Shown here piece by piece: positions 12,233 through 64,000 of a stretch of DNA of 64,000 nucleotides. A program made the position numbers and the translations under genes. This stretch comes from Escherichia phage vB_EcoM_DE16, in sequence record OP595145.1; one strand, written 5' to 3'. The stretch's first letter is position 1, and each line of letters starts with the position of its first letter. Below the pieces are notes generated by a model that was given only the letters and a program-made list of their open reading frames with translations, was not told where the DNA came from and made no database searches.

Positions 12233-12248
12233 TATTATCTCCTCTACA

Positions 12249-31976: not shown

Positions 31977-32055
31977 TCTTTTCTCCTCTCTTTGCGGGGA
32001 ACTATTCCCCGCTTCATGTGATATATCTTACTCTTTTTAAGAACTATGTCAACAC

Positions 32056-32277
32056 TTATTTTGTTGAATGAGAGGAAAAGATTCCTCGTAATACCGCCAG
32101 AATAAACGAAACACAAACCACGGTCCAGAAGGTTACTGGGACAGTGATATCTGCATGACCCATAACTTCAGCAACATAGTTGTAAGCCAGCAACAGTAAC
32201 CAAGCTGGAATCAAACTAAGCATAAAAGCAATAACAAAAAAGCTTACCACTGCAACAATACCTGCAAAAACACCCAT
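32056..32277 (-). CDS. small two-helix membrane protein
   Basis: 73 aa; two hydrophobic segments. Confidence 0.4.
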   Translation of the reverse strand: MGVFAGIVAVVSFFVIAFMLSLIPAWLLLLAYNYVAEVMGHADITVPVTFWTVVCVSFILAVLRGIFSSHSTK

Positions 32278-52430: not shown

Positions 52431-52581
52431 GTCCTATACAAACCTTGTCTTTTTCAGTTTGCATCACTAGGATTCGATCTGAGTGGGTTCCTGAAGGTCT
52501 GCCAATAAGATTAAAGGTTATCTCAAATTCCCATTACCTATTATCTCAAAAATCCCTCAAATTATTTAAACTTTTTAAGAA

Positions 52582-52758
52582 TTTACAAAAGTGAAAGTTG
52601 AAAACCAAAATTTAAAGTTTAGGAAAATTATCTTAAAATGTTAGATACAAAACAAAACTCAAAAGTCAAGGAAAATTTTAAAAATTTTGCGCGCCCACAG
52701 TATTTAAAGTTTTTTTGCTTTTACAAAAATGAAAGTACAAAAGCAAAATTTAAAGTTT
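52582..52758. repeat. AT-rich direct repeats (two ~39-bp copies) with embedded TTTAAAGTTT near-palindromes
   Basis: TTTACAAAAGTGAAAGTTGAAAACCAAAATTTAAAGTTT (52582-52620) vs TTTACAAAAATGAAAGTACAAAAGCAAAATTTAAAGTTT (52720-52758). Confidence 0.6.
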
Positions 52759-52807
52759 ACAAAAATTTATGCAGGTGGGAATGAGAAGAGTTCTCATGTG
52801 GAAATGC

Positions 52808-52886
52808 AAATGATAATGATTCGCATTTAGGTTTATAAATGAGATTGATTCTTATTCAATAAGGTAAATGATAATCATTCTCATTT
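52808..52886. promoter_or_regulatory. two Fur-box-like palindromic operators
   Basis: AAATGATAATGATTCGCATTT (52808-52828) and AAATGATAATCATTCTCATTT (52866-52886) vs Fur consensus GATAATGATAATCATTATC; also palindrome AATGAGAAGAGTTCTCATG at ~52779-52797. Confidence 0.45.
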
Positions 52887-53117
52887 AGAGAATGACGCGC
52901 AGGGGCGGTGTTTGTCTCGCGCTCCCGTGTCCCCTCGCCATGTAATAAGAATAACAGATCCAGCCAGGAAAGCAAGCGATTATTTTATCTTTACATTTCT
53001 TTACAAATATATAGCGCCCAGCCTACCGGCGATCAACCTTCCAACCAGCGCCCTGGTATGTTAGCCCCGCCTTTACGCCGTGGGGTGGCGCTTCCTCTTC
53101 TGTATGTAAAACAGTAT

Positions 53118-53160
53118 AAGCCCGATCCCTGGGCTTGTCAAGATTATTTTTTGTTTTCTT
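53118..53160 (+). terminator. terminator-like hairpin at the end of the GC-rich island
   Basis: AAGCCC-GATCCCT-GGGCTT stem then TTTTTTGTTTTCTT 10 nt downstream. Confidence 0.3.
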
Positions 53161-53519
53161 GCCAGGATAGGACACCTAACCAAAAATGCATATCGCCCCG
53201 CGCCCCTGGTGGGATCTTGCTTTCCCCGCCGCCACTGCAAGCCCATAAATAACCATCAGCGAACGGATCAAAGTTTTCTATTTCTTCCACCTTATGATCG
53301 CCCAGGTTGAGAACGGTTTCAACCTTTAAGCCCGTTGCGCTTGCTACCTGGTGCACCGTGCCGCCTTGCCAGCCCAATGAGTGCATAAGGTGTAATGTAG
53401 TATTTGTCATGGTATCGCCCTTTCTTTGTTGTGCGCCCTGGTTGGCGCGGTAGAAAGATGATAGCCGTTTCCTTCATATACAGCAAGCAAAAAGAAAATA
53501 AAAAAGATTGAAAAAGTGG

Positions 53520-53548
53520 TTGACGTTCCTCACCTGGTAGCGTAGTAT
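53520..53548 (+). promoter_or_regulatory. sigma70-like promoter with long leader
   Basis: TTGACG, 17 nt, TAGTAT; ~135-nt leader before ATG 53683. Confidence 0.4.
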
Positions 53549-53682
53549 TCATCTTGTCGAGGGGGCGCGGCACAACGACAATAAACAACAGGAGGGCGCA
53601 ATGTAGGACGGGCAAAGGTGAGGATCTCCATAATCCACCGTCCACCAACAAAAAACATCATTCATCACCTGGAGTTAAAATC

Positions 53683-53880
53683 ATGGCAACATTGCACATA
53701 GTAGCGAAAGCAGGACAAATCAGCGTCGTGGTAAACGGTTTTACTGAGTTCAGTCATCCCCAGGATGATCATGAAACGGTTTTATCTTTTATTGATTCCT
53801 TGTTAGAAATGGGAGTCATTACAGAAGACCAGCACGCTACAAAATGCAAGCGCGTTAATCAAATTGCAGGGATAGAATAA
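53683..53880 (+). CDS. hypothetical early protein
   Basis: Track ORF trimmed to ATG after GGAG; 65 aa. Confidence 0.35.
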   Translation: MATLHIVAKAGQISVVVNGFTEFSHPQDDHETVLSFIDSLLEMGVITEDQHATKCKRVNQIAGIE

Positions 53881-53886
53881 AAAGTA

Positions 53887-53946
53887 TTGACAACAAACAA
53901 CAACCTGATAAGATGTATCACATAGGGCGGGAAGTGGTTTCCCGCT
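53887..53946 (+). promoter_or_regulatory. promoter plus 5'UTR stem-loop cassette
   Basis: TTGACA, 16 nt, TAAGAT; hairpin GGGCGGGAA-GTGG-TTTCCCGC; then AGAGAGATTATCATC-ATG. Confidence 0.5.
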
Positions 53947-53970
53947 CGTAACAGAAGAGAGATTATCATC

Positions 53971-54243
53971 ATGGCATCATATAGCGCAACAATGATCGTA
54001 GCTGGCACAACTGGTAAACCTATGAGCGGTGGCGGATCTTTCGCTAATATCAATATTGACGGGCGTTTATCCCTGGACGCAGCGATTGCCATTGCACGGG
54101 AAACATTTAAAAAAGAATGTAATTTCAATAAGCAAGATTATTTAGGTTTCGCTATTGAAAAAACCGCGCGCTTTGTTGATTATAAAAGCCCGAAAATGAT
54201 CGACACTACACTAAAAGCGCAAGATGTAGCGTTTTTGCTTTAA
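53971..54243 (+). CDS. hypothetical early protein
   Basis: 90 aa; cassette-supplied RBS and ATGGC start. Confidence 0.45.
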   Translation: MASYSATMIVAGTTGKPMSGGGSFANINIDGRLSLDAAIAIARETFKKECNFNKQDYLGFAIEKTARFVDYKSPKMIDTTLKAQDVAFLL

Positions 54244-54246
54244 GGC

Positions 54247-54302
54247 TTGACATTAACGAATAATTTGTTAATATGTTACATAAAGCGGGAATAGTTCCCG
54301 CT
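54247..54302 (+). promoter_or_regulatory. promoter plus 5'UTR stem-loop cassette
   Basis: TTGACA, 16 nt, TAATAT; hairpin AGCGGGAA-TAG-TTCCCGCT. Confidence 0.5.
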
Positions 54303-54319
54303 ATTTGTAAGGTGGTAGA

Positions 54320-54577
54320 ATGTTTTACATCAAATTAAAAGGTCACGTGATCGCGTTCAAAGATAACGCTTTTTACAGATTAGCAAAATATGCGTTAATA
54401 CATCCCCACTATGTTTATATAAGGGGGCGTGATGAAATAAATATCTTTGATCAAACAACATGCGAGAACATCGAGATCCGCAAGGTTGGCGTACGTGACT
54501 ATCGTACATCTTTCTACCCTTGCAAGGATTCAGCAAGTCTTTTTAAAGTATGCCAATTGTTGAAAAAAGGTGGTTAA
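54320..54577 (+). CDS. hypothetical early protein
   Basis: 85 aa; GGTGG RBS. Confidence 0.4.
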   Translation: MFYIKLKGHVIAFKDNAFYRLAKYALIHPHYVYIRGRDEINIFDQTTCENIEIRKVGVRDYRTSFYPCKDSASLFKVCQLLKKGG

Positions 54578-54578
54578 T

Positions 54579-55136
54579 ATGGGCCGCGAATATGTGATCC
54601 AGTCTTGGGTAAAACATGAAGCAGATGATCCGCGCATCATTCCCGATCATCTTATCGATGAATCCACGGGATATAGCGGTGAGCAAATAGGTAACAGATT
54701 AGCACGTAGTAACGGCAACGTAAAAGCGCGTTATGTGCGCCCTGGCTGGCTGGCAAATGGTAACGCTGATTTATCCAGTGCGGAAGATGCGAGCGACGGC
54801 GCGAAAGATAATCCTTTGTACAAAATTGATCCGGCTTTTCGTGTCCTGGATGAATACCCCAGCAAGATAGCGGCGCTCGATCAGGCCCTGGAAAGTAAGC
54901 GCATCACCTGGACCGCTTACAACATGGCAAAAAACGTACTTGATGGTAAATTGATTCAAGCTGAAAGAAAATTAGCCAAAATTGCAGCCATAGCCCAGGA
55001 GGAAGACGAGGAGACAACGGAAGAGGAAGAGTACGAAGAGATCCCGCCGTTGTTGTGTGTTGATGCTTTTCCTGATTATCAGCCGACAGAGGAAGAAAAA
55101 AGGATCGCACTAGAAAACTTTGAAAATAGTCTTTGA
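54579..55136 (+). CDS. hypothetical protein with acidic C-terminal region
   Basis: Track ORF trimmed to ATG after AAAGGTGG; 185 aa. Confidence 0.4.
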   Translation: MGREYVIQSWVKHEADDPRIIPDHLIDESTGYSGEQIGNRLARSNGNVKARYVRPGWLANGNADLSSAEDASDGAKDNPLYKIDPAFRVLDEYPSKIAALDQALESKRITWTAYNMAKNVLDGKLIQAERKLAKIAAIAQEEDEETTEEEEYEEIPPLLCVDAFPDYQPTEEEKRIALENFENSL

Positions 55137-55189
55137 CATATCGCCGCCACTGGCATAATATTTACCACGTAGGGCGGCAATGGTGCCGC
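55134..55189 (+). promoter_or_regulatory. promoter plus 5'UTR stem-loop cassette
   Basis: TTGACA, CATAAT/TAATAT; hairpin GGCGGCA-ATGG-TGCCGC. Confidence 0.5.
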
Positions 55190-55218
55190 TCATAGTGAAA
55201 TTATGCAAGAGGCTTACA

Positions 55219-55314
55219 ATGATTAATAAAGAAAATAGCTTGACGGTTGGAACGATTAACGCTATCATTCTAGCCGTTCCATTTTGGGTTGTAGTAGCGG
55301 CTATTATTTTCTAA
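55219..55314 (+). CDS. small membrane peptide (31 aa), not in supplied ORF track
   Basis: CAAGAGG RBS; MINKENSLTVGTINAIILAVPFWVVVAAIIF. Confidence 0.3.
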   Translation: MINKENSLTVGTINAIILAVPFWVVVAAIIF

Positions 55315-55322
55315 AAATATTC

Positions 55323-55383
55323 TTGACAACGTTTTTTAATCTGATAAGATGTATCACATAGGGCGGCGGAATACTTCCCCGCC
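55323..55383 (+). promoter_or_regulatory. promoter plus 5'UTR stem-loop cassette
   Basis: TTGACA, 16 nt, TAAGAT; hairpin GGGCGGCGGAA-TAC-TTCCCCGCC. Confidence 0.5.
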
Positions 55384-55406
55384 AAAACAAAAAAAAGGGT
55401 AACACA

Positions 55407-55769
55407 ATGAGCAAGCAAATCAATACTATCATGTTTAATCTGGTATCTTTCCGCGATGATATGAAAAATTTACCACGTGAAACGGTTGATATCCATGTTT
55501 CAGCTTATCGCGCCCTTATTGATATGTTACCGCTAAAACGTGATCAACATGCCGCTAATATGATGCTTAATGCTATGCTTAAAAAGATGATTCAAACGGA
55601 TCTTACTCTGGCGTATGAGTATCAAGGGCGCTTATATGCGACTTACAACAAAGCGGTACCTGGTCTGGGAAGTACCGAAGAGTTGCACGGCTTAAACCTG
55701 GATCAAAACACTTGGGATAGTATGCGCCGCGTTATGGTATGGGCCGAAAGCGGTAAAATTTACGAATAA
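55407..55769 (+). CDS. hypothetical early protein
   Basis: 120 aa. Confidence 0.45.
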   Translation: MSKQINTIMFNLVSFRDDMKNLPRETVDIHVSAYRALIDMLPLKRDQHAANMMLNAMLKKMIQTDLTLAYEYQGRLYATYNKAVPGLGSTEELHGLNLDQNTWDSMRRVMVWAESGKIYE

Positions 55770-55775
55770 AAACGG

Positions 55776-55832
55776 TTGACACTGTTTAAACTTCTGGTAT
55801 AGTTTATCACGTAGGGCGGCAATGGTGCCGCC
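55776..55832 (+). promoter_or_regulatory. promoter plus 5'UTR stem-loop cassette
   Basis: TTGACA, 16 nt, TATAGT; hairpin GGCGGC-AATGG-TGCCGCC. Confidence 0.5.
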
Positions 55833-55852
55833 AACAATAAAAGGTTAACATC

Positions 55853-56032
55853 ATGGCTATCATTGCAAAAACTGAGATTATAGGTTTAGATTCGATCCTC
55901 CTGGCTTATGAGGAAACTTTAAAAATGTATGTAGTGACCTATGGTGATTATGTGCGTGAATACGAATACATTGATCTTGCTTTCGAATGTTACATTCGCC
56001 AGGTCAATAAAGCCTATAACGATTATCGTTAA
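55853..56032 (+). CDS. hypothetical small protein (59 aa), not in supplied ORF track
   Basis: AAAGG RBS; ATGGCT start as in other cassette genes. Confidence 0.35.
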   Translation: MAIIAKTEIIGLDSILLAYEETLKMYVVTYGDYVREYEYIDLAFECYIRQVNKAYNDYR

Positions 56033-56051
56033 AAGTTTTAGTCTTATACTA

Positions 56052-56103
56052 TTGACAATGAGTGATAGTATAAGCATAATAACTTTTATCGGGAATACTT
56101 CCC
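56052..56103 (+). promoter_or_regulatory. promoter plus short 5'UTR stem-loop cassette
   Basis: TTGACA, 17 nt, CATAAT; hairpin GGGAA-TAC-TTCCC. Confidence 0.45.
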
Positions 56104-56129
56104 ACTAACCAAAAAGAGAGATTATCATC

Positions 56130-56495
56130 ATGGCTATTAATATCAATGTTTCCGCTTATGCTACCCTGGCTAACACGGCTAAAATTGAATTATCCAGCAT
56201 TGAAGCGGTGCACATTAGCGCCCGTCGCTGGTTTCAACAGTCCTACGGTAACACATATTTTTCTTTAATGGTTGACGTTGAGATCGGCGGTAAACTGATC
56301 GAGGTGGTTAACGTTCCGTTTCAATATGGCTATGGTGATCATTTTGATACCGTCGCCCTGGAAGAATTTAGCAAGGTTATTAATATGGAAGGTAAAGAGT
56401 TTTCACGCGGCGCGTATCTTTCCCGTTTTTGCCGTGACAATGGGATCACTGTATACAGTCATGCGAGCGATGTTAAACGTAAAAAAGATTTATAA
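56130..56495 (+). CDS. hypothetical early protein
   Basis: 121 aa; AGAGAGATTATCATC-ATGGCT. Confidence 0.45.
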   Translation: MAININVSAYATLANTAKIELSSIEAVHISARRWFQQSYGNTYFSLMVDVEIGGKLIEVVNVPFQYGYGDHFDTVALEEFSKVINMEGKEFSRGAYLSRFCRDNGITVYSHASDVKRKKDL

Positions 56496-56501
56496 AAAGC
56501 A

Positions 56502-56560
56502 TTGACAGCACGAATAAAAAGAGTAAACTGTATTACATAGAGAGCGGGAATACTTCCCGC
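56502..56560 (+). promoter_or_regulatory. promoter plus 5'UTR stem-loop cassette
   Basis: TTGACA, 16 nt, TAAACT; hairpin GCGGGAA-TAC-TTCCCGC. Confidence 0.5.
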
Positions 56561-56584
56561 CTCACTGAAAAAGAGATTAATATC

Positions 56585-56824
56585 ATGGCTAAATCAAAAA
56601 TGTTCTTAGGTCACAAAAATAAAACTCATTGGAATGTAAGCCTTTGGATTAATAATGACGAATCATTATATCGGTTGGCGAAAGAATTTATCGCCGCTAA
56701 TACTAATCGTAATGATGCTGCCCGTGATATGATGTTATTCCTGGAACAAACTGGACAAGATAAAACTCCAGACGGTTTCAAGTATAGCACTACAGCGATC
56801 CGCGCCGCGATGGTTGGAATGTAA
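56585..56824 (+). CDS. hypothetical early protein
   Basis: 79 aa. Confidence 0.45.
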   Translation: MAKSKMFLGHKNKTHWNVSLWINNDESLYRLAKEFIAANTNRNDAARDMMLFLEQTGQDKTPDGFKYSTTAIRAAMVGM

Positions 56825-56833
56825 TAAAAACAG

Positions 56834-56893
56834 TTGACAACGTTTAAAATTAGTGTAAGATGTATCACATAGGGCGGGAAGTGGTTTCCCGCC
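56834..56893 (+). promoter_or_regulatory. promoter plus 5'UTR stem-loop cassette
   Basis: TTGACA, 16 nt, TAAGAT; hairpin GGGCGGGAA-GTGG-TTTCCCGCC (same as the 53887 copy). Confidence 0.5.
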
Positions 56894-56914
56894 AAAACAG
56901 AGAGATTAAAGATT

Positions 56915-57142
56915 ATGGCTATCAATATTGTTCGCGTATCCGGCACCGTTGGCACTTCCCAGGTTATTGCAGTTGTAACAAACAAAAAGATTAATGATGT
57001 ATGTGAGATCTTGAATAAGTGGGCTGTTGCTAATTTTGGGGAATATGCAAGCGTCGAGTACATCGAATCCTACCAGGTGCCAACCATCAGCCTAACCGAT
57101 CTCAACGTTGATCGCCTGTTATGCCTGGATGAATTAATCTGA
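56915..57142 (+). CDS. hypothetical early protein
   Basis: 75 aa. Confidence 0.45.
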   Translation: MAINIVRVSGTVGTSQVIAVVTNKKINDVCEILNKWAVANFGEYASVEYIESYQVPTISLTDLNVDRLLCLDELI

Positions 57143-57151
57143 AAAAGATTG

Positions 57152-57207
57152 TTGACACGGGAAAGAAAAAGAGTAAACTGTATTACGTAGGGCGGCAATA
57201 GTGCCGC
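57152..57207 (+). promoter_or_regulatory. promoter plus 5'UTR stem-loop cassette
   Basis: TTGACA, 16 nt, TAAACT; hairpin GGCGGCA-ATAG-TGCCGC. Confidence 0.5.
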
Positions 57208-57232
57208 TCACAACAGAAGAGAGATTATCACG

Positions 57233-57448
57233 ATGGCTAATATCCGTACACTGTTAAAAAATGCAAGTCAAGTTTTATTTTCAGATGACGAGTATTTCAA
57301 TAAAGACATTACAGGCGTAAAAAATCTTAAAGATGTAAAGGATGTGATAGGTATTCGCGGATCTTTACGTAAAGGTGACTACTACGGCAATAAAGTACAA
57401 TATAAATTAAATCAGTCTTATGATTTTACTTTGACAATTATTTCATAA
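57233..57448 (+). CDS. hypothetical early protein
   Basis: 71 aa. Confidence 0.45.
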   Translation: MANIRTLLKNASQVLFSDDEYFNKDITGVKNLKDVKDVIGIRGSLRKGDYYGNKVQYKLNQSYDFTLTIIS

Positions 57449-57454
57449 AACCGC

Positions 57455-57516
57455 TTGCAATCTTAATAAAATAAAGTAAACTGTATTACATCAAGGCGGC
57501 GGAATGGTCCACCGCC
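57455..57516 (+). promoter_or_regulatory. promoter plus 5'UTR stem-loop cassette
   Basis: TTGCAA, 16 nt, TAAACT; hairpin GGCGGCGGA-ATGG-TCCACCGCC. Confidence 0.45.
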
Positions 57517-57540
57517 TAACAAAGAGAAGAGGAAAACACC

Positions 57541-57708
57541 ATGATCACTTTCGCTACCCGTGAAGCCGCTCGCAACGTTGCCCGTAAAGTTAACGCCGCC
57601 AACCTGGGCGCTACGTTTAAAGCACCTGTAAAAGATGAATCAGGGAAATGGATCTTCCCTGGTCTGCGTCATGCTGACAAGTTAGGTACTTTAAGCCTTA
57701 AAAAATAA
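57541..57708 (+). CDS. hypothetical small basic protein (55 aa), not in supplied ORF track
   Basis: AGAGGAAAA RBS; MITFATREAARNVARKVNAANLG... Confidence 0.35.
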   Translation: MITFATREAARNVARKVNAANLGATFKAPVKDESGKWIFPGLRHADKLGTLSLKK

Positions 57709-57711
57709 TCG

Positions 57712-57749
57712 TTGACTTTTCGTTATAGCGCCTTATAATGGGCGCTATA
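57712..57749 (+). promoter_or_regulatory. sigma70-like promoter with -10 box inside a perfect palindrome
   Basis: TTGACT, 16 nt, TATAAT; inverted repeat TATAGCGCC / GGCGCTATA brackets the -10. Confidence 0.45.
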
Positions 57750-57782
57750 GAGAAGAGAAACCACTACTAACAAGGAAACATC

Positions 57783-58004
57783 ATGATCACTTTCGCTATT
57801 GTCGCCGTTGTCGCTGGTCAGGTTTACGTAAACGATACATTCACCACAGAAGACAAGGCCGCAGGAGACATAACCGCCGTTTACAATAAGTGCAAGGCAG
57901 TAGAAAGGATGTTAGCGCCTTGTATGTTAATGAGTGAACGCCAGGACGGGATAACAGTGTTTACTAACATTGAAACAGGGTACCAAATGGTAGTAACAAA
58001 ATAA
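57783..58004 (+). CDS. hypothetical early protein
   Basis: 73 aa; hydrophobic N-terminus MITFAIVAVVAG. Confidence 0.4.
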   Translation: MITFAIVAVVAGQVYVNDTFTTEDKAAGDITAVYNKCKAVERMLAPCMLMSERQDGITVFTNIETGYQMVVTK

Positions 58005-58007
58005 AGC

Positions 58008-58065
58008 TTGACACGGATTTAATTTTCAGTAAACTGTTACACGTAGGGCGGGAATAGTTCCCGCT
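58008..58065 (+). promoter_or_regulatory. promoter plus 5'UTR stem-loop cassette
   Basis: TTGACA, 16 nt, TAAACT; hairpin GGGCGGGAA-TAG-TTCCCGC. Confidence 0.5.
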
Positions 58066-58082
58066 AAAAAGAGAGAAAGACC

Positions 58083-58436
58083 ATGAAAGCACAAAATGCA
58101 ATTAAAGAGTACATCCTTGCCGCTATCGATTTTAATGATTACGGTATTACAACCGAAAAAGAGAAGATCGCGGAATTGATGCGCCGTTTTAATTCAGAGT
58201 ACTGGTACCCTGATAACCAATCACGTTTTAATTATAGTATTGTTAAAGCACTTGCATCATGGTTACAAGGTTTGCCATCAGATATCAATATCGCTTTCGA
58301 ATATTGGGAAATTGATCGCTTGTTAACATCCTGGGGATACATTAAAGAGAATAGCAACGATGATAAAATCCAACGAGAAAGGGAAAATTATTGGCTTTAT
58401 ATTGCAGGCGTGATCCTTGCTTGCTCTTATGAATGA
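58083..58436 (+). CDS. hypothetical early protein
   Basis: 117 aa. Confidence 0.45.
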   Translation: MKAQNAIKEYILAAIDFNDYGITTEKEKIAELMRRFNSEYWYPDNQSRFNYSIVKALASWLQGLPSDINIAFEYWEIDRLLTSWGYIKENSNDDKIQRERENYWLYIAGVILACSYE

Positions 58437-58442
58437 TAAACC

Positions 58443-58496
58443 TTGACAATTTTACAAAACAGTTTAAATTAACAATATAGCGGCAATGGTGCCGCT
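58443..58496 (+). promoter_or_regulatory. promoter plus 5'UTR stem-loop cassette
   Basis: TTGACA, 16 nt, TAAATT; hairpin AGCGGCA-ATGG-TGCCGCT. Confidence 0.5.
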
Positions 58497-58515
58497 CATA
58501 TGAAGAGGAAACAAA

Positions 58516-58662
58516 ATGAATACATCTAATCGCGCAGAAAAAATTCAATCTTCCAAGATCCGCAAGGCCTGGAACGAGGAAGTGATCCGCAAAGGCGACA
58601 AGCGCAATAAAACAAAGCGCGGGAAGAGTGACAAATATAATTGGATGGATTTAGAGGATTAA
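58516..58662 (+). CDS. hypothetical small basic protein (48 aa), not in supplied ORF track
   Basis: GAAGAGGAAA RBS; followed by a strong terminator. Confidence 0.35.
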   Translation: MNTSNRAEKIQSSKIRKAWNEEVIRKGDKRNKTKRGKSDKYNWMDLED

Positions 58663-58668
58663 CATAAC

Positions 58669-58696
58669 AAGGGCGCACCAAGCGCCCTTTCTTTTT
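58669..58696 (+). terminator. rho-independent terminator
   Basis: GGGCGC-ACCAA-GCGCCC hairpin followed by TTTCTTTTTAT. Confidence 0.7.
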
Positions 58697-58717
58697 ATAT
58701 GTAGAGGATAAACAAAG

Positions 58718-58903
58718 ATGACTTTAAACGAGCTTAAAACAGCCTACAACGCAACGTTAAAAATAGCCGTGCGTTACCGTGATGCGTACGGTTTTATCGC
58801 GCAGGGCGTGATCCTGGGCTTTTCTGACGATGGTTTGATCTATGTTGATGCACATCATAACAAGGTAAAACCTGAAAACGTCATTAGCATAAAATATCTT
58901 TAA
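58718..58903 (+). CDS. hypothetical early protein
   Basis: 61 aa; GAGGA RBS. Confidence 0.4.
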   Translation: MTLNELKTAYNATLKIAVRYRDAYGFIAQGVILGFSDDGLIYVDAHHNKVKPENVISIKYL

Positions 58904-58909
58904 AAGTGG

Positions 58910-58969
58910 TTGACACCATAACCGGACCTGTTAAACTGTATTACATCAGGCGGGGAATAGTTCCCCACC
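58910..58969 (+). promoter_or_regulatory. promoter plus 5'UTR stem-loop cassette
   Basis: TTGACA, 16 nt, TAAACT; hairpin GGCGGGGAA-TAG-TTCCCCACC. Confidence 0.5.
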
Positions 58970-58988
58970 ATACAAAAAGGTAAATATT

Positions 58989-59195
58989 ATGATCACAACA
59001 AAACAAGAAAAAATTATTACAGACATTGCCGCAGTAGCCGCTATTGCTATTATTGGTACCTACTATGACACCGCGCGTCCTTCCTCCTTGCATGAGGTCG
59101 CCGCCGTTGCATCAGTTGGCGTACTGTTTTACGTTGGTAAACGCTATTTATCACCAATGATTAACAAGCTGACACCGTGGAAAAATAAAGGTTGA
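58989..59195 (+). CDS. small membrane protein
   Basis: 68 aa; two hydrophobic segments. Confidence 0.4.
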   Translation: MITTKQEKIITDIAAVAAIAIIGTYYDTARPSSLHEVAAVASVGVLFYVGKRYLSPMINKLTPWKNKG

Positions 59196-59250
59196 TCCTG
59201 TTTTATATTGTGTTATAGTTATCGTGTAGGGCGGCAATGGTGCCGCGCCC
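59192..59250 (+). promoter_or_regulatory. promoter plus 5'UTR stem-loop cassette
   Basis: TTGATC, 16 nt, TATAGT; hairpin GGCGGCA-ATGG-TGCCGC then GCCCTTTT. Confidence 0.45.
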
Positions 59251-59266
59251 TTTTGAGGATGCAATC

Positions 59267-59551
59267 ATGAGTAAAGCTAACACCGTGTTAATGTTTTCCC
59301 TAGTTAATGATGCCGCTCACTTGTCCAACATGACGCAGGAGGGTAACACATTAACGGCAACATTCACCAATAAGCTTGACCGAGTGATCATCATCTCACT
59401 GAAAACAGTTAGTAAAGGCTTTTACTCGTTAGCTTATCATTGGATCACCGATACCGATGAGACAAGCCAGGACTATAGCGCCCCTTTCCCTGAATCAATG
59501 GCACGGGAGATCATCGCCGCCGTTGTAAATGATGGTTTGTTTACTGCATAA
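59267..59551 (+). CDS. hypothetical early protein
   Basis: Track ORF trimmed to ATG after GAGGA; 94 aa. Confidence 0.4.
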   Translation: MSKANTVLMFSLVNDAAHLSNMTQEGNTLTATFTNKLDRVIIISLKTVSKGFYSLAYHWITDTDETSQDYSAPFPESMAREIIAAVVNDGLFTA

Positions 59552-59566
59552 AAATTTAGAAAAGGC

Positions 59567-59623
59567 TTGCAATAATTTTGAGATAGTGTATATTTAATTC
59601 ATAGGGCGGCGGGAATAGTTTCC
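59567..59623 (+). promoter_or_regulatory. promoter plus degenerate 5'UTR stem-loop cassette
   Basis: TTGCAA, 16 nt, TATATT; decayed hairpin GGGCGGCGGGAATAGTTTCC. Confidence 0.4.
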
Positions 59624-59646
59624 AAAGCAAACGAGAGGATTACACG

Positions 59647-59766
59647 ATGAGCAAGTACACAGTAGAATACACGGTAGAAAATCCGGCAGTATCCGAAGGT
59701 AAAAAGATGACATTTGCCATCAGTATAATCGCTTTCGTTGTCACTATCTTATCAATCATCTTATAA
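59647..59766 (+). CDS. small membrane peptide (39 aa), not in supplied ORF track
   Basis: GAGAGGA RBS; C-terminal TM segment; coordinates approximate. Confidence 0.3.
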   Translation: MSKYTVEYTVENPAVSEGKKMTFAISIIAFVVTILSIIL

Positions 59767-59776
59767 GGTGCACACC

Positions 59777-59938
59777 ATGAAAACAACAGACATTATCAAA
59801 GAGATCGCCCTTGCCGCTGGCGTTGAAGTCGAGGAAGTGATCGCGCTCAATCTTACAGAAAACGATCTGCGCAACTATGAAGCGGAAAGCGTGAAAGCAA
59901 GCGGCGCGGTCCTGGTATATGATCCGGCTAACAAGTAA
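59777..59938 (+). CDS. hypothetical small protein
   Basis: Track ORF trimmed to ATG after AGGTG; 53 aa. Confidence 0.35.
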   Translation: MKTTDIIKEIALAAGVEVEEVIALNLTENDLRNYEAESVKASGAVLVYDPANK

Positions 59939-59947
59939 GGGGATAAC

Positions 59948-60058
59948 ATGAATCCGAAAGATATGCAAGCATGGAAAGGGTACGACGATCTAAGCGCCTT
60001 GCGCAATAAGTCAAGCCGTAACCTTAGACGGTTGGAAGCAAAGAAAAAGAAAAAATAG
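59948..60058 (+). CDS. hypothetical small basic peptide (36 aa), not in supplied ORF track
   Basis: AAGGGG RBS; Lys-rich C-terminus. Confidence 0.3.
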   Translation: MNPKDMQAWKGYDDLSALRNKSSRNLRRLEAKKKKK

Positions 60059-60059
60059 T

Positions 60060-60115
60060 TTGACAAGTCCGCCTAGTCTGATAATATATATCTTGTAGGG
60101 CGGCAATGGTGCCGC
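60060..60115 (+). promoter_or_regulatory. promoter plus 5'UTR stem-loop cassette
   Basis: TTGACA, 17 nt, TAATAT; hairpin GGGCGGCA-ATGG-TGCCGC. Confidence 0.5.
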
Positions 60116-60136
60116 TCACAAGAAGAGAGAAAAATC

Positions 60137-60421
60137 ATGAAAATCACAAAAAGCCTAACTAATTATGCAGCACGTCGCGGATTATGTTTAACCGTTGAAA
60201 ACTTAGGGAAAGAAGACTTTTTGTGTTTTTGGGAGCTTGAAAATGATTGCGAGTGGATGTTTTCTTATTCTATCTGCGAAGATCAAAACGGTTGTTTGTT
60301 AACCTGGCGCGGTAATATCTATTTACCGGAAGAAATTAAAGAAGAGTTACCAGGTACGATCATGACAGAGAGACAGCTTAAGGAAATGATTAATTTTGTA
60401 GGGCAAAACATTAAAAAATAA
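60137..60421 (+). CDS. hypothetical early protein
   Basis: 94 aa. Confidence 0.45.
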   Translation: MKITKSLTNYAARRGLCLTVENLGKEDFLCFWELENDCEWMFSYSICEDQNGCLLTWRGNIYLPEEIKEELPGTIMTERQLKEMINFVGQNIKK

Positions 60422-60422
60422 T

Positions 60423-60483
60423 TTGACAGCACGCAAACAACGTAGTAAAGTTTACCACATAGGGCGGCGGAATGGTCCACCGC
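60423..60483 (+). promoter_or_regulatory. promoter plus 5'UTR stem-loop cassette
   Basis: TTGACA, 17 nt, TAAAGT; hairpin GGCGGCGG-AATGG-TCCACCGC. Confidence 0.5.
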
Positions 60484-60506
60484 TCACAACAGAAGAGAAA
60501 CAAATC

Positions 60507-60677
60507 ATGATCCCGACTATGTTTTATGTATCGCGCAAAGGTCACAATATTTTTTGGTCTGAAGATTTAAATGAAGCTATGACGTTTGCCCGTGATCGTG
60601 TTGCTATCGGTGGCGTTAACATCACCGTAACCGATGAAAACGGCATTGAATACTATAACGGCGACAATGAAGAGTAA
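60507..60677 (+). CDS. hypothetical small protein
   Basis: Track ORF trimmed to ATG downstream of the cassette; 56 aa. Confidence 0.4.
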   Translation: MIPTMFYVSRKGHNIFWSEDLNEAMTFARDRVAIGGVNITVTDENGIEYYNGDNEE

Positions 60678-60684
60678 TCAACAA

Positions 60685-60702
60685 GGCGGGATTAATCCCG
60701 CC
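60685..60702 (+). other. intergenic palindromic hairpin without promoter boxes
   Basis: GGCGGGAT-TA-ATCCCGCC perfect palindrome. Confidence 0.4.
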
Positions 60703-60721
60703 TGTATTAAAGGGTAATATA

Positions 60722-60859
60722 ATGAAAACTTTCAACGCAACAGCCTCGACAATTGGTTATATTATTACAGTGCAAGCCGTTGACCTGGTAGCGGCAGCAA
60801 ACAAGATTAAAAAGATGATCCCAACAGGCAGCGAATTTTCCGTTTGGGAAGTAAAATAA
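60722..60859 (+). CDS. hypothetical small protein (45 aa), not in supplied ORF track
   Basis: AAAGGG RBS; MKTFNATASTIGYIITVQAVDL... Confidence 0.3.
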   Translation: MKTFNATASTIGYIITVQAVDLVAAANKIKKMIPTGSEFSVWEVK

Positions 60860-60862
60860 AGC

Positions 60863-60923
60863 TTGACAATAATTTGTTATCTAGTAAAGTGTATTACGTA
60901 GGGCGGGGCAATGGTGCAACGCC
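60863..60923 (+). promoter_or_regulatory. promoter plus degenerate 5'UTR stem-loop cassette
   Basis: TTGACA, 15 nt, TAAAGT; hairpin GGGCGGGGCAATGGTGCAACGCC. Confidence 0.4.
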
Positions 60924-60942
60924 TACTAATGAGGGTAGAATC

Positions 60943-61047
60943 ATGTTAGAGAAAATTTTCACGGTTGCAGTGGTTGGCCTGGCGTTATCGGTTGGAGTAG
61001 TTGCAACTATGGCTAATATGATCCTATCTTCCCACGGTATCGGTTAA
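60943..61047 (+). CDS. small membrane peptide
   Basis: Track ORF trimmed to ATG after GAGGG; 34 aa hydrophobic. Confidence 0.3.
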   Translation: MLEKIFTVAVVGLALSVGVVATMANMILSSHGIG

Positions 61048-61048
61048 G

Positions 61049-61273
61049 GTGAAACAAATGATCACGAATAAGACAGGTAAAACGGAATTTTTACGCAGCT
61101 TGCAAGTTGGTAAACCTGAGATTTGGCATTGTACTAAATCCGCGCATAATGAAATGAAAGATTTTACCGCTACTTTACAACGTGTTAAAATATCTATCAC
61201 ACAGAAAAAAGCCTTGTTAGTAGTAGAAAACGAGATCCCGCAAACTATTATTATTGTCGAGCGTACAGCATGA
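61049..61273 (+). CDS. hypothetical early protein
   Basis: 74 aa; AAGGTG RBS. Confidence 0.4.
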   Translation: MKQMITNKTGKTEFLRSLQVGKPEIWHCTKSAHNEMKDFTATLQRVKISITQKKALLVVENEIPQTIIIVERTA

Positions 61274-61656
61274 AAACAGAAATCATTATTGAAATCATCA
61301 ACGGCTATAAAGAAGCCTTTATTTTTGCTGAATCAGCAAGGGATCATGAAGGTAATTTTATTGATAACTTAGACGATTATGATTTTTCTCCTAGCGCAGA
61401 TCAACGGATCGCCCAGGATGTAACAGCCTTTATTAATGCTAATCTTGCCGCTATCTCTGAGGCAATGAGCGACGGCGCAACAGCCAACCAGATCGGGAAT
61501 GATTTACATTTTACCCGTAACGGTCACGGCGTAGGCTTTTGGGATCGCCCTGAAATATACACCACTAACACAGCCAACCGCCTAACCAATGCAGCTAAGT
61601 TTATGCCGAACGTGTCGGCTTACATTGGTGAAGATAATTTGATTTATATTGAATAA
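61270..61656 (+). CDS. hypothetical early protein
   Basis: 128 aa; ATGA coupling. Confidence 0.45.
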   Translation: MKTEIIIEIINGYKEAFIFAESARDHEGNFIDNLDDYDFSPSADQRIAQDVTAFINANLAAISEAMSDGATANQIGNDLHFTRNGHGVGFWDRPEIYTTNTANRLTNAAKFMPNVSAYIGEDNLIYIE

Positions 61657-61662
61657 AAAGTA

Positions 61663-61718
61663 TTGACACAGATCGCCAGTGTGCTAATATTTACCACGTA
61701 GGGCGGCAATGGTGCCGC
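61663..61718 (+). promoter_or_regulatory. promoter plus 5'UTR stem-loop cassette
   Basis: TTGACA, 16 nt, TAATAT; hairpin GGGCGGCA-ATGG-TGCCGC. Confidence 0.5.
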
Positions 61719-61739
61719 TCCCCGAAAAAGGTAAACATT

Positions 61740-61931
61740 ATGAAAACCATCTCCTACCTGGAATCGAATAACATGTTTTTTGCGCCCGTTGATGAAATCA
61801 TCGAAGCATTAAACAACGAGGAAGGGATCAAAGGTTTATCTTATAGCCAACTTTTAGGAATGGTTGCAGCAAATGAAGAGCTTGCTTACTATGTTGAAAA
61901 TTTTGATGAAGCTGTAATCTTTACAAAATAA
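61740..61931 (+). CDS. hypothetical early protein
   Basis: 63 aa. Confidence 0.4.
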   Translation: MKTISYLESNNMFFAPVDEIIEALNNEEGIKGLSYSQLLGMVAANEELAYYVENFDEAVIFTK

Positions 61932-61934
61932 TCC

Positions 61935-61991
61935 TTGATCTAATCTCTTAGATAACTTATATTTAATGCGTAGGGCGGCAATGGTGCCGCC
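61935..61991 (+). promoter_or_regulatory. promoter plus 5'UTR stem-loop cassette
   Basis: TTGATC, 17 nt, TATATT; hairpin GGGCGGCA-ATGG-TGCCGCC. Confidence 0.5.
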
Positions 61992-62009
61992 GATAATGAG
62001 GAAAGTAAA

Positions 62010-62309
62010 ATGGAAACTATCGCTATTGTTACCGTAGAAAAACTGGTTGTTGGTGATGTATTCGCGTTAATGGTGCCTAACAGTAGCAAGCTGGGCGCTT
62101 ATGAAGTGATGGATCATAAAAATGAATCATTTGGCGACGGTTGCACAATGGCGGTAAAATCTTTAAAGGATGGAATCATCCGTCAAGCTAATTGGCACAA
62201 AGGGAATCAAGTCGGATTAATATCAGCTAATTTCTTGCCAGAAGAGCAAACGTTAGACCAACTATCAGGCGGTAAGACGTTAGCCGAACTACTGGAAACA
62301 GCGATCTAA
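62010..62309 (+). CDS. hypothetical early protein
   Basis: 99 aa. Confidence 0.45.
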   Translation: METIAIVTVEKLVVGDVFALMVPNSSKLGAYEVMDHKNESFGDGCTMAVKSLKDGIIRQANWHKGNQVGLISANFLPEEQTLDQLSGGKTLAELLETAI

Positions 62310-62317
62310 TCAACAAA

Positions 62318-62333
62318 GGGGCGGCAACGCCCC
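62318..62333 (+). other. intergenic GC hairpin (second family), no promoter boxes
   Basis: GGGGCG-GCAA-CGCCCC. Confidence 0.4.
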
Positions 62334-62353
62334 ACATCAGAAAGGAAAAGATT

Positions 62354-62590
62354 ATGAGTATTGCAACAGTATTAACCGCCGTTAAAACCGCTGAATCATC
62401 CGGCTTGCATGTTGAGCTTATAGATCAACCAGGTGGCGATCTCCTTGTCCAGGTTTACCCGCCGAAAGTAGGAGATGATTATTATTGGTGCTATTCTGAT
62501 ACGTTCGAACAAGTAGACACGAAAGCGATCACAGCTTTTATTTTAAAAGCCATTGAAGAAAATAACTTTCATCATAACATCAAGCAATAA
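62354..62590 (+). CDS. hypothetical early protein
   Basis: 78 aa. Confidence 0.45.
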   Translation: MSIATVLTAVKTAESSGLHVELIDQPGGDLLVQVYPPKVGDDYYWCYSDTFEQVDTKAITAFILKAIEENNFHHNIKQ

Positions 62591-62599
62591 ACCATAAGC

Positions 62600-62615
62600 G
62601 GGGCGGTAACGCCCC
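62600..62615 (+). other. intergenic GC hairpin (second family), no promoter boxes
   Basis: GGGGCG-GTAA-CGCCCC. Confidence 0.4.
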
Positions 62616-62645
62616 ATTAAACGCAATAGGAAGAGGCTAGAAAGC

Positions 62646-62930
62646 ATGAAAAAGATGATCGCAGTAGTTGCCCTGGTTGTTGGTATTAACGCGCCTGTAA
62701 TGGCTAATGAGTTGCCTGAATCCATCACGTTAACCGATATCAACGCAATAAACCGGATCGGTGTTAATTATCGCCTATGCCTTGCCGCTAAAACTTTCCA
62801 GGATGGCACGACAGAATACCACGGATTCGAGGGTATCCGCTGCGGTGAGCTTGCACGCGACCTTAAGGAAGATCCAGACCTTGAGGCCATACCGATGACC
62901 GTAAACGGTAAAGCCCAGGTAAACCGCTAA
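62646..62930 (+). CDS. secreted protein with signal peptide
   Basis: 94 aa; MKKMIAVVALVVGINAPVMA. Confidence 0.45.
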   Translation: MKKMIAVVALVVGINAPVMANELPESITLTDINAINRIGVNYRLCLAAKTFQDGTTEYHGFEGIRCGELARDLKEDPDLEAIPMTVNGKAQVNR

Positions 62931-62932
62931 CC

Positions 62933-63067
62933 ATGAGAAAGGTAATCATCACAATGGGGATCGTAGTAGCAACGCTGGCGCTTATTCCCTTCCTGGTTGA
63001 ATATGTGCTGATTAATGTTGTCCTGGTAGTCAGTGACCTATTGGAAACGGTTGGCAACTGGTTTTAA
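62933..63067 (+). CDS. small membrane peptide (44 aa), not in supplied ORF track
   Basis: ATG 2 nt after upstream stop; two hydrophobic segments. Confidence 0.3.
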   Translation: MRKVIITMGIVVATLALIPFLVEYVLINVVLVVSDLLETVGNWF

Positions 63068-63075
63068 GATAAATA

Positions 63076-63105
63076 AACAGGGCTTGTTTTTGTCCTGTTT
63101 TTTGT
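63076..63105 (+). terminator. weak terminator-like hairpin
   Basis: AACAGG-(12-nt loop)-CCTGTT then TTTTTTG. Confidence 0.3.
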
Positions 63106-63242
63106 TATACTTATTGAACGGGCGGCACCTGGGAGCAGGTGAAGATAATCACCGGACGACCCCGCTATATATTGATAGCTAACATCTATCAAACAACAAA
63201 ACATCAAAGGAATAAACTATCAAATCTTTACAATCCTACCTA

Positions 63243-63301
63243 TTGACACCGGATCACGCTTACATTATCATTTATCACGTAGGGCGGGAATGTTTCCCGC
63301 C
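63243..63301 (+). promoter_or_regulatory. promoter plus 5'UTR stem-loop cassette
   Basis: TTGACA, 15 nt, CATTAT; hairpin GGGCGGGAA-TGT-TTCCCGCC. Confidence 0.5.
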
Positions 63302-63319
63302 TGATTTAGGAGTCATATC

Positions 63320-63553
63320 ATGATCGAACAAATTAAAAGCACTAAACCAAATGTTAACGGTAATGTTTCTCACTTTATCGGGGATAATGAAAGAGGTACA
63401 CCGTACGCCGCCGTAACCGTTCAACCGAACGGGGATTATTGGTTTACCGTGTACGGATCTTACTCTTTTGGACGTTCGGCACATGATAAGATCTTGCAAG
63501 TGGTTAAGCCTACTGGGAAGAATATCACAGCAGAAAAATTTTATAAAAAATAA
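63320..63553 (+). CDS. hypothetical early protein
   Basis: 77 aa; AGGAG RBS. Confidence 0.45.
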   Translation: MIEQIKSTKPNVNGNVSHFIGDNERGTPYAAVTVQPNGDYWFTVYGSYSFGRSAHDKILQVVKPTGKNITAEKFYKK

Positions 63554-63554
63554 C

Positions 63555-63615
63555 TTGCTTTATAGCTCTTGTTAACTTATAGTTATTGCGTAGGGCGAGC
63601 AATACAGCAAGCCCA
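63555..63615 (+). promoter_or_regulatory. promoter plus degenerate 5'UTR stem-loop cassette
   Basis: TTGCTT, 17 nt, TATAGT; decayed hairpin GGGCGAGCAATACAGCAAGCCC. Confidence 0.35.
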
Positions 63616-63631
63616 CAAAGAGGAAAAGAAG

Positions 63632-64000
63632 ATGAGCAAATCAGCAATTAAAGCAGTTGAAAAAGCGCAAGAAGTGATCGCAACGTCAACCACTGGCGCA
63701 AAGGTTAATCTCGTTGGTTATCTGACAGATGAAACTATCCGTAAAAATTGGCATAATGCTGATTTACTGGCTTGCTTATTGATTAATAGTGTCGCTAATG
63801 CTTTCCAGTGTGAAACAGCCGAGAGCCTGGAGGAAAACTTGTTTGATAATATGGATCAAGCCATTGAAACCTATATACAATCAAACCTGGATAGCTGGAA
63901 CAGTAAAACATGGCCCGACAATTTACGCGATACAACTGATCAACTGATCCGCCTTGCCCTGATGGTTGAACGCGATAACGTTCACAACCGCACAAAGTAA
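63632..64000 (+). CDS. hypothetical early protein
   Basis: Track ORF trimmed to ATG after AGAGGAAAAG; stop at window end. Confidence 0.4.
   Translation: MSKSAIKAVEKAQEVIATSTTGAKVNLVGYLTDETIRKNWHNADLLACLLINSVANAFQCETAESLEENLFDNMDQAIETYIQSNLDSWNSKTWPDNLRDTTDQLIRLALMVERDNVHNRTK

Follow-up and report, generated by a model that had tools for sequence, protein, structure and literature searches.

Why should most of the small genes in one block of a phage genome each carry the same promoter, and why should that promoter be followed by a hairpin? The question is raised by a 64,000-nt stretch of Escherichia phage vB_EcoM_DE16 (sequence record OP595145.1; hereafter the window), whose plus strand holds an array of 34 small genes between positions 53520 and 63634. 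The initial annotation described about 24 copies of a cassette composed of a promoter and a 5' stem-loop in this region, likened them to the PeSL elements of T4-type phages and proposed that they mediate modular gene shuffling. In the explanation that accounts best for the sequences, to which we assign a probability of roughly 0.65, each cassette would be the self-contained expression head of one gene, would provide portable homology for recombination and would place a hairpin at the RNA's 5' end.

The copy number was borne out. A strict pattern (TTGACA-N15-19-TANNNT-N5-12-TAGGGCGG) matches 12 times, always on the plus strand and between 53887 and 63243, where 100 shuffles predict 0 matches. 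An nhmmer profile, which was built from these copies and iterated once, detects 22 plus-strand copies (53877-63637) and one other copy in the 64 kb, located on the minus strand (32061-31988). If a variant at 57712 and the promoter at 53520, with which the array opens, are included, the number of promoter units rises to 24, 17 of which contain an exact TTGACA; an independent promoter scan agrees with the cassette promoters. The copies align as a family, both in the profile and in a covariance model, and the hairpin families quoted in the initial annotation are correct. The statement that nearly every small gene is preceded by the unit holds for the 24 of the 34 array genes that are headed by their own cassette; ten genes lack one, and in three or four copies (56052, 59567, 60863, 63555) the hairpin is degenerate. 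The same architecture can also be found outside the genus of this phage, namely in Justusliebigvirus (phage muut, 12 copies in 14 kb), Vequintavirus (FV3), Certrevirus (Pectobacterium phage phiTE) and a Salmonella phage of the Vequintavirinae. In a pattern scan of IMG/VR, most of the 110 matches were single chance matches, and the true relatives were a few contigs of 137-153 kb.

Each cassette takes up the whole intergenic space and has a fixed order: the upstream stop codon, an A-tract, TTGACA, 16-17 nt, TAnnnT, about 10 nt, a GC-rich hairpin, an A-rich leader, a Shine-Dalgarno (SD) sequence and ATG. The upstream stop codon, usually within TAAAAA, lies between 4 nt inside the -35 hexamer and 9 nt 5' of it in 20 of 23 cases. 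The sequence of the spacer between the hexamers differs from copy to copy, the -10 element occurs as TAAGAT, TAAACT, TAATAT, TATAGT or TAAAGT, and a conserved GTATYACRTA stands between the -10 element and the hairpin. In the window, the hairpin consists of a GC-rich stem of 7-10 bp and a loop of 3-5 nt; it is followed by an A-rich, T-poor leader, an SD sequence (GAGAG, GAGG or AAGG) and the start codon. The conserved block was thought to extend into the first two codons, so that many of the proteins begin with MA. This is a feature of a subfamily to which the AGAGAGATTATCATC-ATGGC block is confined, and as a general rule it was overstated, with seven proteins starting with MA and six with MI. 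The first 16 nt (ATGATCACTTTCGCTA; 57541-57556 and 57783-57798) are identical in two adjoining genes that otherwise differ, which shows that the homology of the repeats extends into the coding sequence. The region was also said to be GC-richer than the rest of the window; the excess is real, but small (41.05% versus 39.1%, which ties with the highest of the other 9.7-kb segments, 0.4105), and the coding sequence shares it.

To which phage group does the array belong? Positions 53887-63615 match about 270 phage records, and the group with 95-98% identity consists of Phapecoctavirus genomes of around 150 kb. Judged by these matches, the window is part of a phAPEC8-like myovirus of the genus Phapecoctavirus, subfamily Stephanstirmvirinae. 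These genomes include BI-EHEC, Mt1B1_P17, tuntematon and ESCO13; the Phapecoctavirus relatives cover only 68-100% of the query, which signals insertions and deletions (indels). In the complete relative ESCO25 (149 kb), 20 of 21 cassette copies are found in one 9-kb block, and the 21st, at 101.6 kb, is the counterpart of the minus-strand copy of the window. Genes 3' of the block are packed tightly, overlap and lack cassettes. All 20 array proteins tested belong to PHROGs of unknown function.

The fate of the cassettes among these phages was followed in BLAST alignments of the window with eight relatives, which were chained to locate indels. Gene-sized indels end inside cassettes, and the alignments on either side have 18-35 bp in common. 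A base-by-base alignment was made of seven junctions (55859/56119, 56538/57465, 57196/57465, 60115/61970, 61718/61956, 63286/63577 and 62337/62600, the last of which lies between two promoter-less hairpins), and in each of them the single copy of the shorter genome proved to be a chimera, which matches the upstream copy as far as a shared tract and then switches to the downstream copy. The shared tract is located in the -10 element and discriminator, in the hairpin or in the ribosome-binding site and start codon, and corresponds to the longest identity between the two copies, which argues for a homology-driven rather than a site-specific exchange. An all-against-all comparison revealed 31 indels, of which 13 have both ends and seven have one end in profile-detected cassettes; as cassettes cover about 23% of the array, both ends would fall into cassettes by chance in about 5% of cases. 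One array gene (61740-61931) is missing in six relatives, and the amino-acid identity to phage phiWec179 jumps between 48 and 100% from gene to gene.

More distant phages extend this picture. In a 137-kb metagenomic relative, the gene order is g33-g7-g24-g30-g31 and thus permuted with respect to the window. FV3, a member of the Vequintavirinae, and muut, a member of the Stephanstirmvirinae, have three single-gene units in common (FV3 6770-8015 compared with muut 10835-13072), which are 88-90% identical at the nucleotide level and stand in another order; nothing else is common to the two phages in 14 kb, and the shared segments end at cassettes. ORFs 161 and 162 of FV3 stand between canonical cassettes and are the sole open reading frames (ORFs) of the locus that are not annotated as similar to rV5. 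Going by these alignments, the block is a hyperplastic region, in which single genes are exchanged even between phage subfamilies, and it is very probable that recombination between cassette copies adds, deletes, replaces and reorders single genes. The proposed modular shuffling is hence supported by many cassette-bounded indels with chimeric junctions in close relatives and by permuted order and exchange between subfamilies in distant ones.

At orthologous positions of seven close relatives, the mismatch frequency is 0.12% in the -35 hexamer, 1.9% in the stem, 2.9% in the -10 element, 3.7% in the loop, 4.0% in the spacer, 5.7% in the leader and 5.8% at third codon positions; the -35 hexamer and the stem, which lie far below the third positions, are thus constrained. 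A plain MAFFT alignment of the hairpins placed the 3' arms out of register, and a covariance model and an arm-swap test were used instead. The covariance model detects 121 copies in the window and eight relatives, all on the sense strand, with 94.5% of the cells paired; one pair alternates between CG and GC (22/13) and another between GU, GC and AU. The stem covariance that the initial annotation had proposed to analyse is therefore present, but modest, because the outer stem is invariant and variants of the inner stem are treated as insertions. Stronger evidence comes from the hairpins of five genera, i.e., Phapecoctavirus, Justusliebigvirus, Vequintavirus, Certrevirus and another Vequintavirinae phage: 199 promoter-linked occurrences contain 68 distinct hairpins (e.g., GGCGGCA/TGCCGCC, GCGGGAA/TTCCCGC, GGGCGAC/GTCGCCC, GCCGGGAA/TTCCCGGC and GGCGGTGG/CCCACCGCC), in which pairing is kept by compensatory changes. 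In the arm-swap test, hairpins with their own arms reached -12.0 kcal/mol, compared with -7.6 kcal/mol for swapped arms. Furthermore, the hairpin starts 9-11 nt after the -10 element in nearly all of the 199 occurrences, and this fixed distance ties it to the start of transcription.

The geometry of the promoters predicts a start at an A or G located 7-8 nt after the -10 element, which would leave a 5' overhang of about 3 nt (3-6 nt). For each of twelve predicted leaders, folding gave a single 5' hairpin of -12.5 to -16.3 kcal/mol (z -1.2 to -4.0), with the SD sequence and AUG open. Beyond the hairpin, the sequence is rich in A (median of 0-1 T per 9 nt), and no U-tract was found directly 3' of the hairpins of the array copies. 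A terminator scan of the plus strand of the array returned only two convincing sites, at 58669 and 63075, with stems of 8-9 bp; the other calls have stems of 5-7 bp, lie nearly all within ORFs and never coincide with a cassette hairpin. The hairpin was also considered as an intrinsic (Rho-independent) terminator; this was rejected, as T-runs are missing and the convincing sites lie elsewhere.

In the proposed mechanism, each unit would function as the expression head of one small early gene, driven by a strong host sigma-70 promoter; the cassette promoters are presumably early promoters of the host RNA polymerase. The predicted transcript would start with about 3 unpaired nt, followed by the GC-rich hairpin of 7-10 bp, an unstructured A-rich leader, the SD sequence and ATG. 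Units of about 90 bp that are arranged head to tail at gene boundaries constitute portable homology, and recombination between two copies leaves an intact chimeric cassette in each recombinant. Its position makes it likely that the hairpin acts in RNA, in connection with the 5' end. RppH and RNase E both require single-stranded 5' ends (PMC3997798), and the hairpin would hinder RppH and the 5'-end-dependent attack of RNase E. This specific role as a 5'-terminal stabiliser, the most economical one, is proposed tentatively, at somewhat less than even odds; an RNase shield or a binding site for a factor had been raised as possible roles by the initial annotation. A second likely role is that of an insulator, with which expression would no longer depend on the downstream gene. 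In read-through RNA, the hairpin would be located just 3' of the preceding ORF and could form a barrier to 3' exonucleases.

Several observations weigh against this explanation. The 3-nt overhang is deduced from promoter geometry, and the pair types do not fix the strand on which the structure acts, since G.U pairs occur in the sense strand and C.A mismatches, which correspond to G.U pairs in the antisense strand, occur as well. The 5' arm with its flank, CAC(A/G)TAGGGCGG, and the AAT that opens the loop show more sequence conservation than a purely structural role would need; recognition by a factor or homogenisation by recombination could be responsible. The ten genes without a cassette and the three or four decayed hairpins imply that the hairpin is dispensable. 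Concerning recombination, 11 of the 31 indels end outside profile-detected cassettes on both sides. Moreover, viable indels would be intergenic anyway and the intergenic space consists of cassette, so that the chimeric junctions are decisive and not the enrichment alone.

In a less probable alternative, which would also account for the conservation of the flank and loop, the hairpin and its 5' flank (AUAGGGCGG...) would be a recognition tag for a phage or host RNA-binding factor or for RNA polymerase, similar to put or nut sites. Such a tag could time the shut-off of the early transcripts, stabilise them selectively, control their translation or make their transcription processive. Indeed, CAC(A/G)TAGGGCGG is kept across subfamilies whose genomes have otherwise diverged, the AAT with which the loop begins hardly varies in the window, the distance from the -10 element is fixed, and the hairpin is limited to this promoter class, the rest of the genome being free of it. 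On the other hand, the stem may have 5-10 bp and the loop 3-6 nt, the inner part of the stem is just as free to vary in sequence, and the sequence conservation may stem from recombination between copies. No boxA/boxB-like arrangement and no candidate partner was identified, a scan of positions 52000-64000 against Rfam 15 (E<=1) gave no covariance-model match, and no homologue of T4 Srd, an activator of RNase E, was found by tblastn in the window or in the complete relative. It is rather unlikely that the 5' end AUAGGGCGG and the hairpin form an "early-mRNA tag" that is conserved throughout the rV5-like supergroup (Stephanstirmvirinae and Vequintavirinae) and is read by a dedicated phage or host factor or by RNA polymerase. 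If this were true, the tag would give a class of transcripts a common fate, either selective protection during the destruction of host mRNA or synchronous early-to-middle shut-off, and would double as the homology that moves genes between phages, thereby combining a regulatory address label with a gene-exchange system.

Less probable still is a function of the stem-loop as a terminator or attenuator as in T4-type PeSLs, which would limit the pile-up of read-through transcription along the array. Such a device would suit a region that contains 24 tandem promoters versus two convincing intrinsic-terminator-like sites in 10 kb; the stem-loops of PeSLs reduce reporter expression like a strong terminator (PMC2839356), and some genes (60684, 62316, 62598) are preceded by hairpins without a promoter. 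However, the tails of most copies are A-rich with 0-2 T, the hairpin lies 3' of its own start site and would also attenuate its own transcript, and the blocking of upstream transcription leaves the fixed distance of 10 nt from the -10 element in five genera unexplained. An action of the palindrome in DNA, either as an operator at about +4 to +22, to which a dimeric repressor of the early promoters binds, or as a cruciform or hairpin at which a structure-specific nuclease starts site-specific exchange, is highly improbable: the early transcribed region is covered by a perfect palindrome in several copies, a divergent small ORF with a helix-turn-helix-like segment adjoins the array (53410..53147) and one crossover in a PeSL of phage RB49 was mapped within the loop, but the distance between the conserved outer half-sites GGCGG and CCGCC varies between 8 and 12 bp, which is incompatible with one dimer on B-DNA, and the crossovers occur wherever identity is longest.

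How does the cassette, read as an expression head with a 5' RNA hairpin, compare with known elements? PeSLs (Arbiol et al. 2010, PMC2839356; Comeau et al. 2014, PMC4122927) and the cassette are both composites of about 100 bp, which contain an AT-rich tract, a near-consensus sigma-70 early promoter, a GC-rich stem-loop, an SD sequence and a start codon. Both are located at the boundaries of small ORFan genes in hyperplastic regions, and in both, the junctions of indels or replacements between close relatives lie inside the units. The initial comparison to PeSLs is thus justified with regard to the role of the element, whereas the anatomy differs, as the cassette's hairpin would stand at the very start of its mRNA and lacks the U-tract of a terminator. 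The stem-loop of a T4-type PeSL precedes the promoter or overlaps it (between -35 and -10 or over the -10) and stops transcription that arrives from upstream (PMC2839356, PMC4122927); in the cassette, it lies about 10 nt 3' of the -10 element, with no sequence basis for a terminator function, and its position is fixed within about 1 nt across genera, unlike in PeSLs. The phages that carry them differ as well: the cassette is found in the Stephanstirmvirinae and Vequintavirinae, PeSLs, which also form encapsidated mini-circles, in T4-like Straboviridae.

Another comparison is with the ompA-type or appended 5' stabiliser hairpins of E. coli (PMC3997798), which likewise consist of a stable hairpin a few nt from the 5' end (predicted in the case of the cassette) and an open leader. 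The shared mechanism would be protection from RppH and the 5' sensor of RNase E. Stabilisers of E. coli are single cases on cellular mRNAs, whereas the cassette would be one module that is reused on about 24 phage genes and conserved across genera. The RNase III sites of the T7 early region are also structured RNAs that are repeated between early genes of a virulent coliphage and could shape mRNA stability; however, they are long, irregular hairpins in one polycistronic transcript with few promoters and are cut by RNase III, while the stems of 7-10 bp in the cassette are too short for RNase III and each has its own promoter. Lambda nut (boxA-boxB) and HK022 put sites are promoter-proximal RNA hairpins on early transcripts, too. 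In contrast to nut, the cassette lacks boxA and a GNRA-like pentaloop, and no N-like protein was identified; the two-hairpin architecture of put is absent. With many closely spaced promoters in the array, antitermination would be unnecessary.

In the literature, PeSLs are described only for T4-like phages. The genome paper of rV5 lists promoters and terminators, but no promoter-linked hairpin, and no published description of the element was found for rV5-, phi92- or phAPEC8-type phages, Phapecoctavirus genome papers included, in a search that did not cover the older genome papers of phAPEC8 and PVP-SE1. The individual copies are listed in Table 1.

Table 1. Cassettes, related hairpins and terminator-like sites of the window. 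Positions are those of the whole stretch; hairpins are given as 5' arm/loop/3' arm.
Feature	Position	Strand	Promoter	Hairpin	Remarks
Cassette, sole copy outside the array	31974..32061	-	TTGACA-16-TAAGAT	GCGGGGAA/TAG/TTCCCCGC	SD; ATG
First array promoter	53520..53685	+	TTGACG-17-TAGTAT		Heads gene 53683-53880
Cassette	53887..53973	+	TTGACA-16-TAAGAT	GGGCGGGAA/GTGGT/TTCCCGCTC (53925-53947)	AGAGAGATTATCATC-ATG
Cassette	54247..54322	+	TTGACA-16-TAATAT	AGCGGGAA/TAG/TTCCCGCT (54284-54302)	
Cassette	55133..55221	+	TTGACA-17-TAATAT	GGGCGGCA/ATGG/TGCCGCTC (55172-55191)	Upstream stop TGA within -35
Cassette	55323..55409	+	TTGACA-16-TAAGAT	GGCGGcGGAA/TAC/TTCCCCGCC (55362-55383)	
Cassette	55776..55855	+	TTGACA-16-TATAGT	GGCGGCA/ATGG/TGCCGCC (55815-55832)	Left end of 55859/56119 indel
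Cassette, weakened hairpin	56052..56132	+		GGGAA/TAC/TTCCC (56091-56103)	Right end of 55859/56119 indel
Cassette	56502..56587	+	TTGACA-16-TAAACT	GAGaGCGGGAA/TAC/TTCCCGCCTC (56540-56563)	Left end of 56538/57465 indel
Cassette	56834..56917	+	TTGACA-16-TAAGAT	GGCGGGAA/GTGGT/TTCCCGCC (56873-56893)	
Cassette	57152..57235	+	TTGACA-16-TAAACT	GGGCGGCA/ATAG/TGCCGCTC (core ~57190-57209)	Left end of 57196/57465 indel
Cassette	57454..57543	+	TTGCAA-17-TAAACT	AGGCGGcGGA/ATGG/TCCaCCGCCT (57494-57517)	Right end of two indels
Variant cassette	57712..57785	+	TTGACT-16-TATAAT		Without 5' hairpin
Cassette	58008..58085	+	TTGACA-16-TAAACT	GGCGGGAA/TAG/TTCCCGCT (58047-58065)	
Cassette	58443..58518	+	TTGACA-16-TAAATT	AGCGGCA/ATGG/TGCCGCT (core ~58479-58496)	
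Intrinsic-terminator-like site	58669..58698	+		AAGGGCGC/ACCAA/GCGCCCTT	Followed by T-run
Cassette	58910..58991	+	TTGACA-16-TAAACT	GGcGGGGAA/TAG/TTCCCCaCC (58949-58969)	
Cassette, weak -35	59192..59269	+	-35 TTGATC; -10 TATAGT	GCGGCA/ATGG/TGCCGC (59229-59248)	-35 holds upstream stop TGA
Cassette, degenerate hairpin	59567..59649	+	-35 TTGCAA; -10 TATATT	GGAA/TAGT/TTCC	
Cassette	60060..60139	+	TTGACA-16-TAATAT	GGGCGGCA/ATGG/TGCCGCTC, outer stem extended (60091-60123)	Left end of 1.85-kb indel 60115/61970
Cassette	60423..60509	+	TTGACA-17-TAAAGT	GGGCGGcGGA/ATGG/TCCaCCGCTC (60462-60485)	
Promoter-less hairpin and SD	60684..60724	+		AGGCGGGA/TTAA/TCCCGCCT	Heads gene 60722; left end of gene replacement in relatives
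Cassette	60863..60945	+	TTGACA-16-TAAAGT	GGCGggGCA/ATGG/TGCaaCGCC	Internal 2x2 mismatch
Cassette	61663..61742	+	TTGACA-16-TAATAT	GGGCGGCA/ATGG/TGCCGCTC (61701-61720)	Left end of 61718/61956 indel
Cassette, weak -35	61935..62012	+	-35 TTGATC; -10 TATATT	GGCGGCA/ATGG/TGCCGCC (61974-61991)	Right end of two indels
Promoter-less hairpin and SD	62316..62356	+		GGGGCG/GCAA/CGCCCC	Recombined with 62598 copy in phage anhysbys
Promoter-less hairpin and SD	62598..62648	+		GGGGCG/GTAA/CGCCCC	Right end of 62337/62600 indel
Second intrinsic-terminator-like site	63075..63110	+			200-490 bp insertion here in relatives
Cassette	63243..63322	+	TTGACA-17-TATCAT	GGGCGGGAA/TGT/TTCCCGCCT (63282-63302)	Left end of 63286/63577 indel
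Degenerate last cassette in the window	63555..63634	+	TTGCTT-17-TATAGT	GGGCGAGCAATACAGCAAGCCC	Right end of 63286/63577 indel

A few units deviate from the common plan. The leader of the first array promoter (53528-53670) is 141 nt long and peculiar to this phage; relatives have a canonical hairpin leader of 56 nt there. In the variant at 57712, the TATAAT -10 element is flanked by the two arms of a perfect inverted repeat of 9 bp (57724-57732 / 57741-57749). This is the classical PeSL layout, which no other copy has; relatives carry a 308-bp insertion at 57763/57776, adjoining the gene at 57783. The two promoter-less hairpins of the form GGGGCGG(C/T)AACGCCCC are the recombination partners of a gene deletion in phage anhysbys. 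The minus-strand copy at 31974-32061 lies within a block of minus-strand genes and heads a gene encoding a TerC-family integral membrane protein (31976..31002).

Directly 5' of the array is a non-coding stretch of about 1.2 kb (52340-53520), which is annotated as "repeat_region" in relatives. It contains AT-rich direct repeats (72 nt twice and 29 nt three times in 52558-52767) and, in 52780-52888, three palindromic units with a spacing of 29 nt (AATGA(G/T)A..TGATTC..CATTT), which resemble a Fur box; one match of 16/19 is found at 52864-52882, where about 0.05 are expected. A tandem repeat finder gave nothing for this non-coding region. ESCO25 has a comparable gap of about 1.4 kb after the array. 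The stretch is a candidate replication origin or regulatory region. The last gene before the gap (51798-52340) encodes a NADAR-domain protein (Pfam E=1.8e-35). The NADAR family is linked to the reversal of ADP-ribosylation, and the gene is plausibly an anti-defence gene. An ORF of 88 amino acids on the minus strand (53410..53147) is divergent from the first array promoter, is kept in relatives and belongs to PHROG 19316 (unknown function). Pfam and PDB searches with it gave no match; its segment GGTVHQVASATGLKVETV resembles a helix-turn-helix, and the protein may be a regulator. Finally, 19 records of "Campylobacter phage" and single records of an "Acinetobacter" and a "Klebsiella" phage are about 95-96% identical to the coliphage region; their host labels are probably wrong or the result of contamination.

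For the phages concerned, the element is conceptually closest to PeSLs and seems new in this phage group, in the position of its stem-loop and in its strict positional conservation. The idea of regulatory cassettes as vehicles of modular gene exchange, known from T4-like phages, thereby reaches another large group of therapeutic coliphages (phAPEC8, phi92 and rV5 types), in which the exchange, including transfer between subfamilies, is resolved at the base-pair level. Cassette exchange also explains why annotation pipelines report variable gene counts in otherwise conserved genomes, and it identifies a set of accessory genes with fast turnover, which are likely to be host-takeover or anti-defence genes. 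That five genera hold the hairpin about 10 nt after the -10 element suggests that it functions where the mRNA begins; if this is true, the cassette would be a natural, reusable part consisting of a promoter, a 5' insulator and a ribosome-binding site, which would be of interest to phage engineering and synthetic biology.

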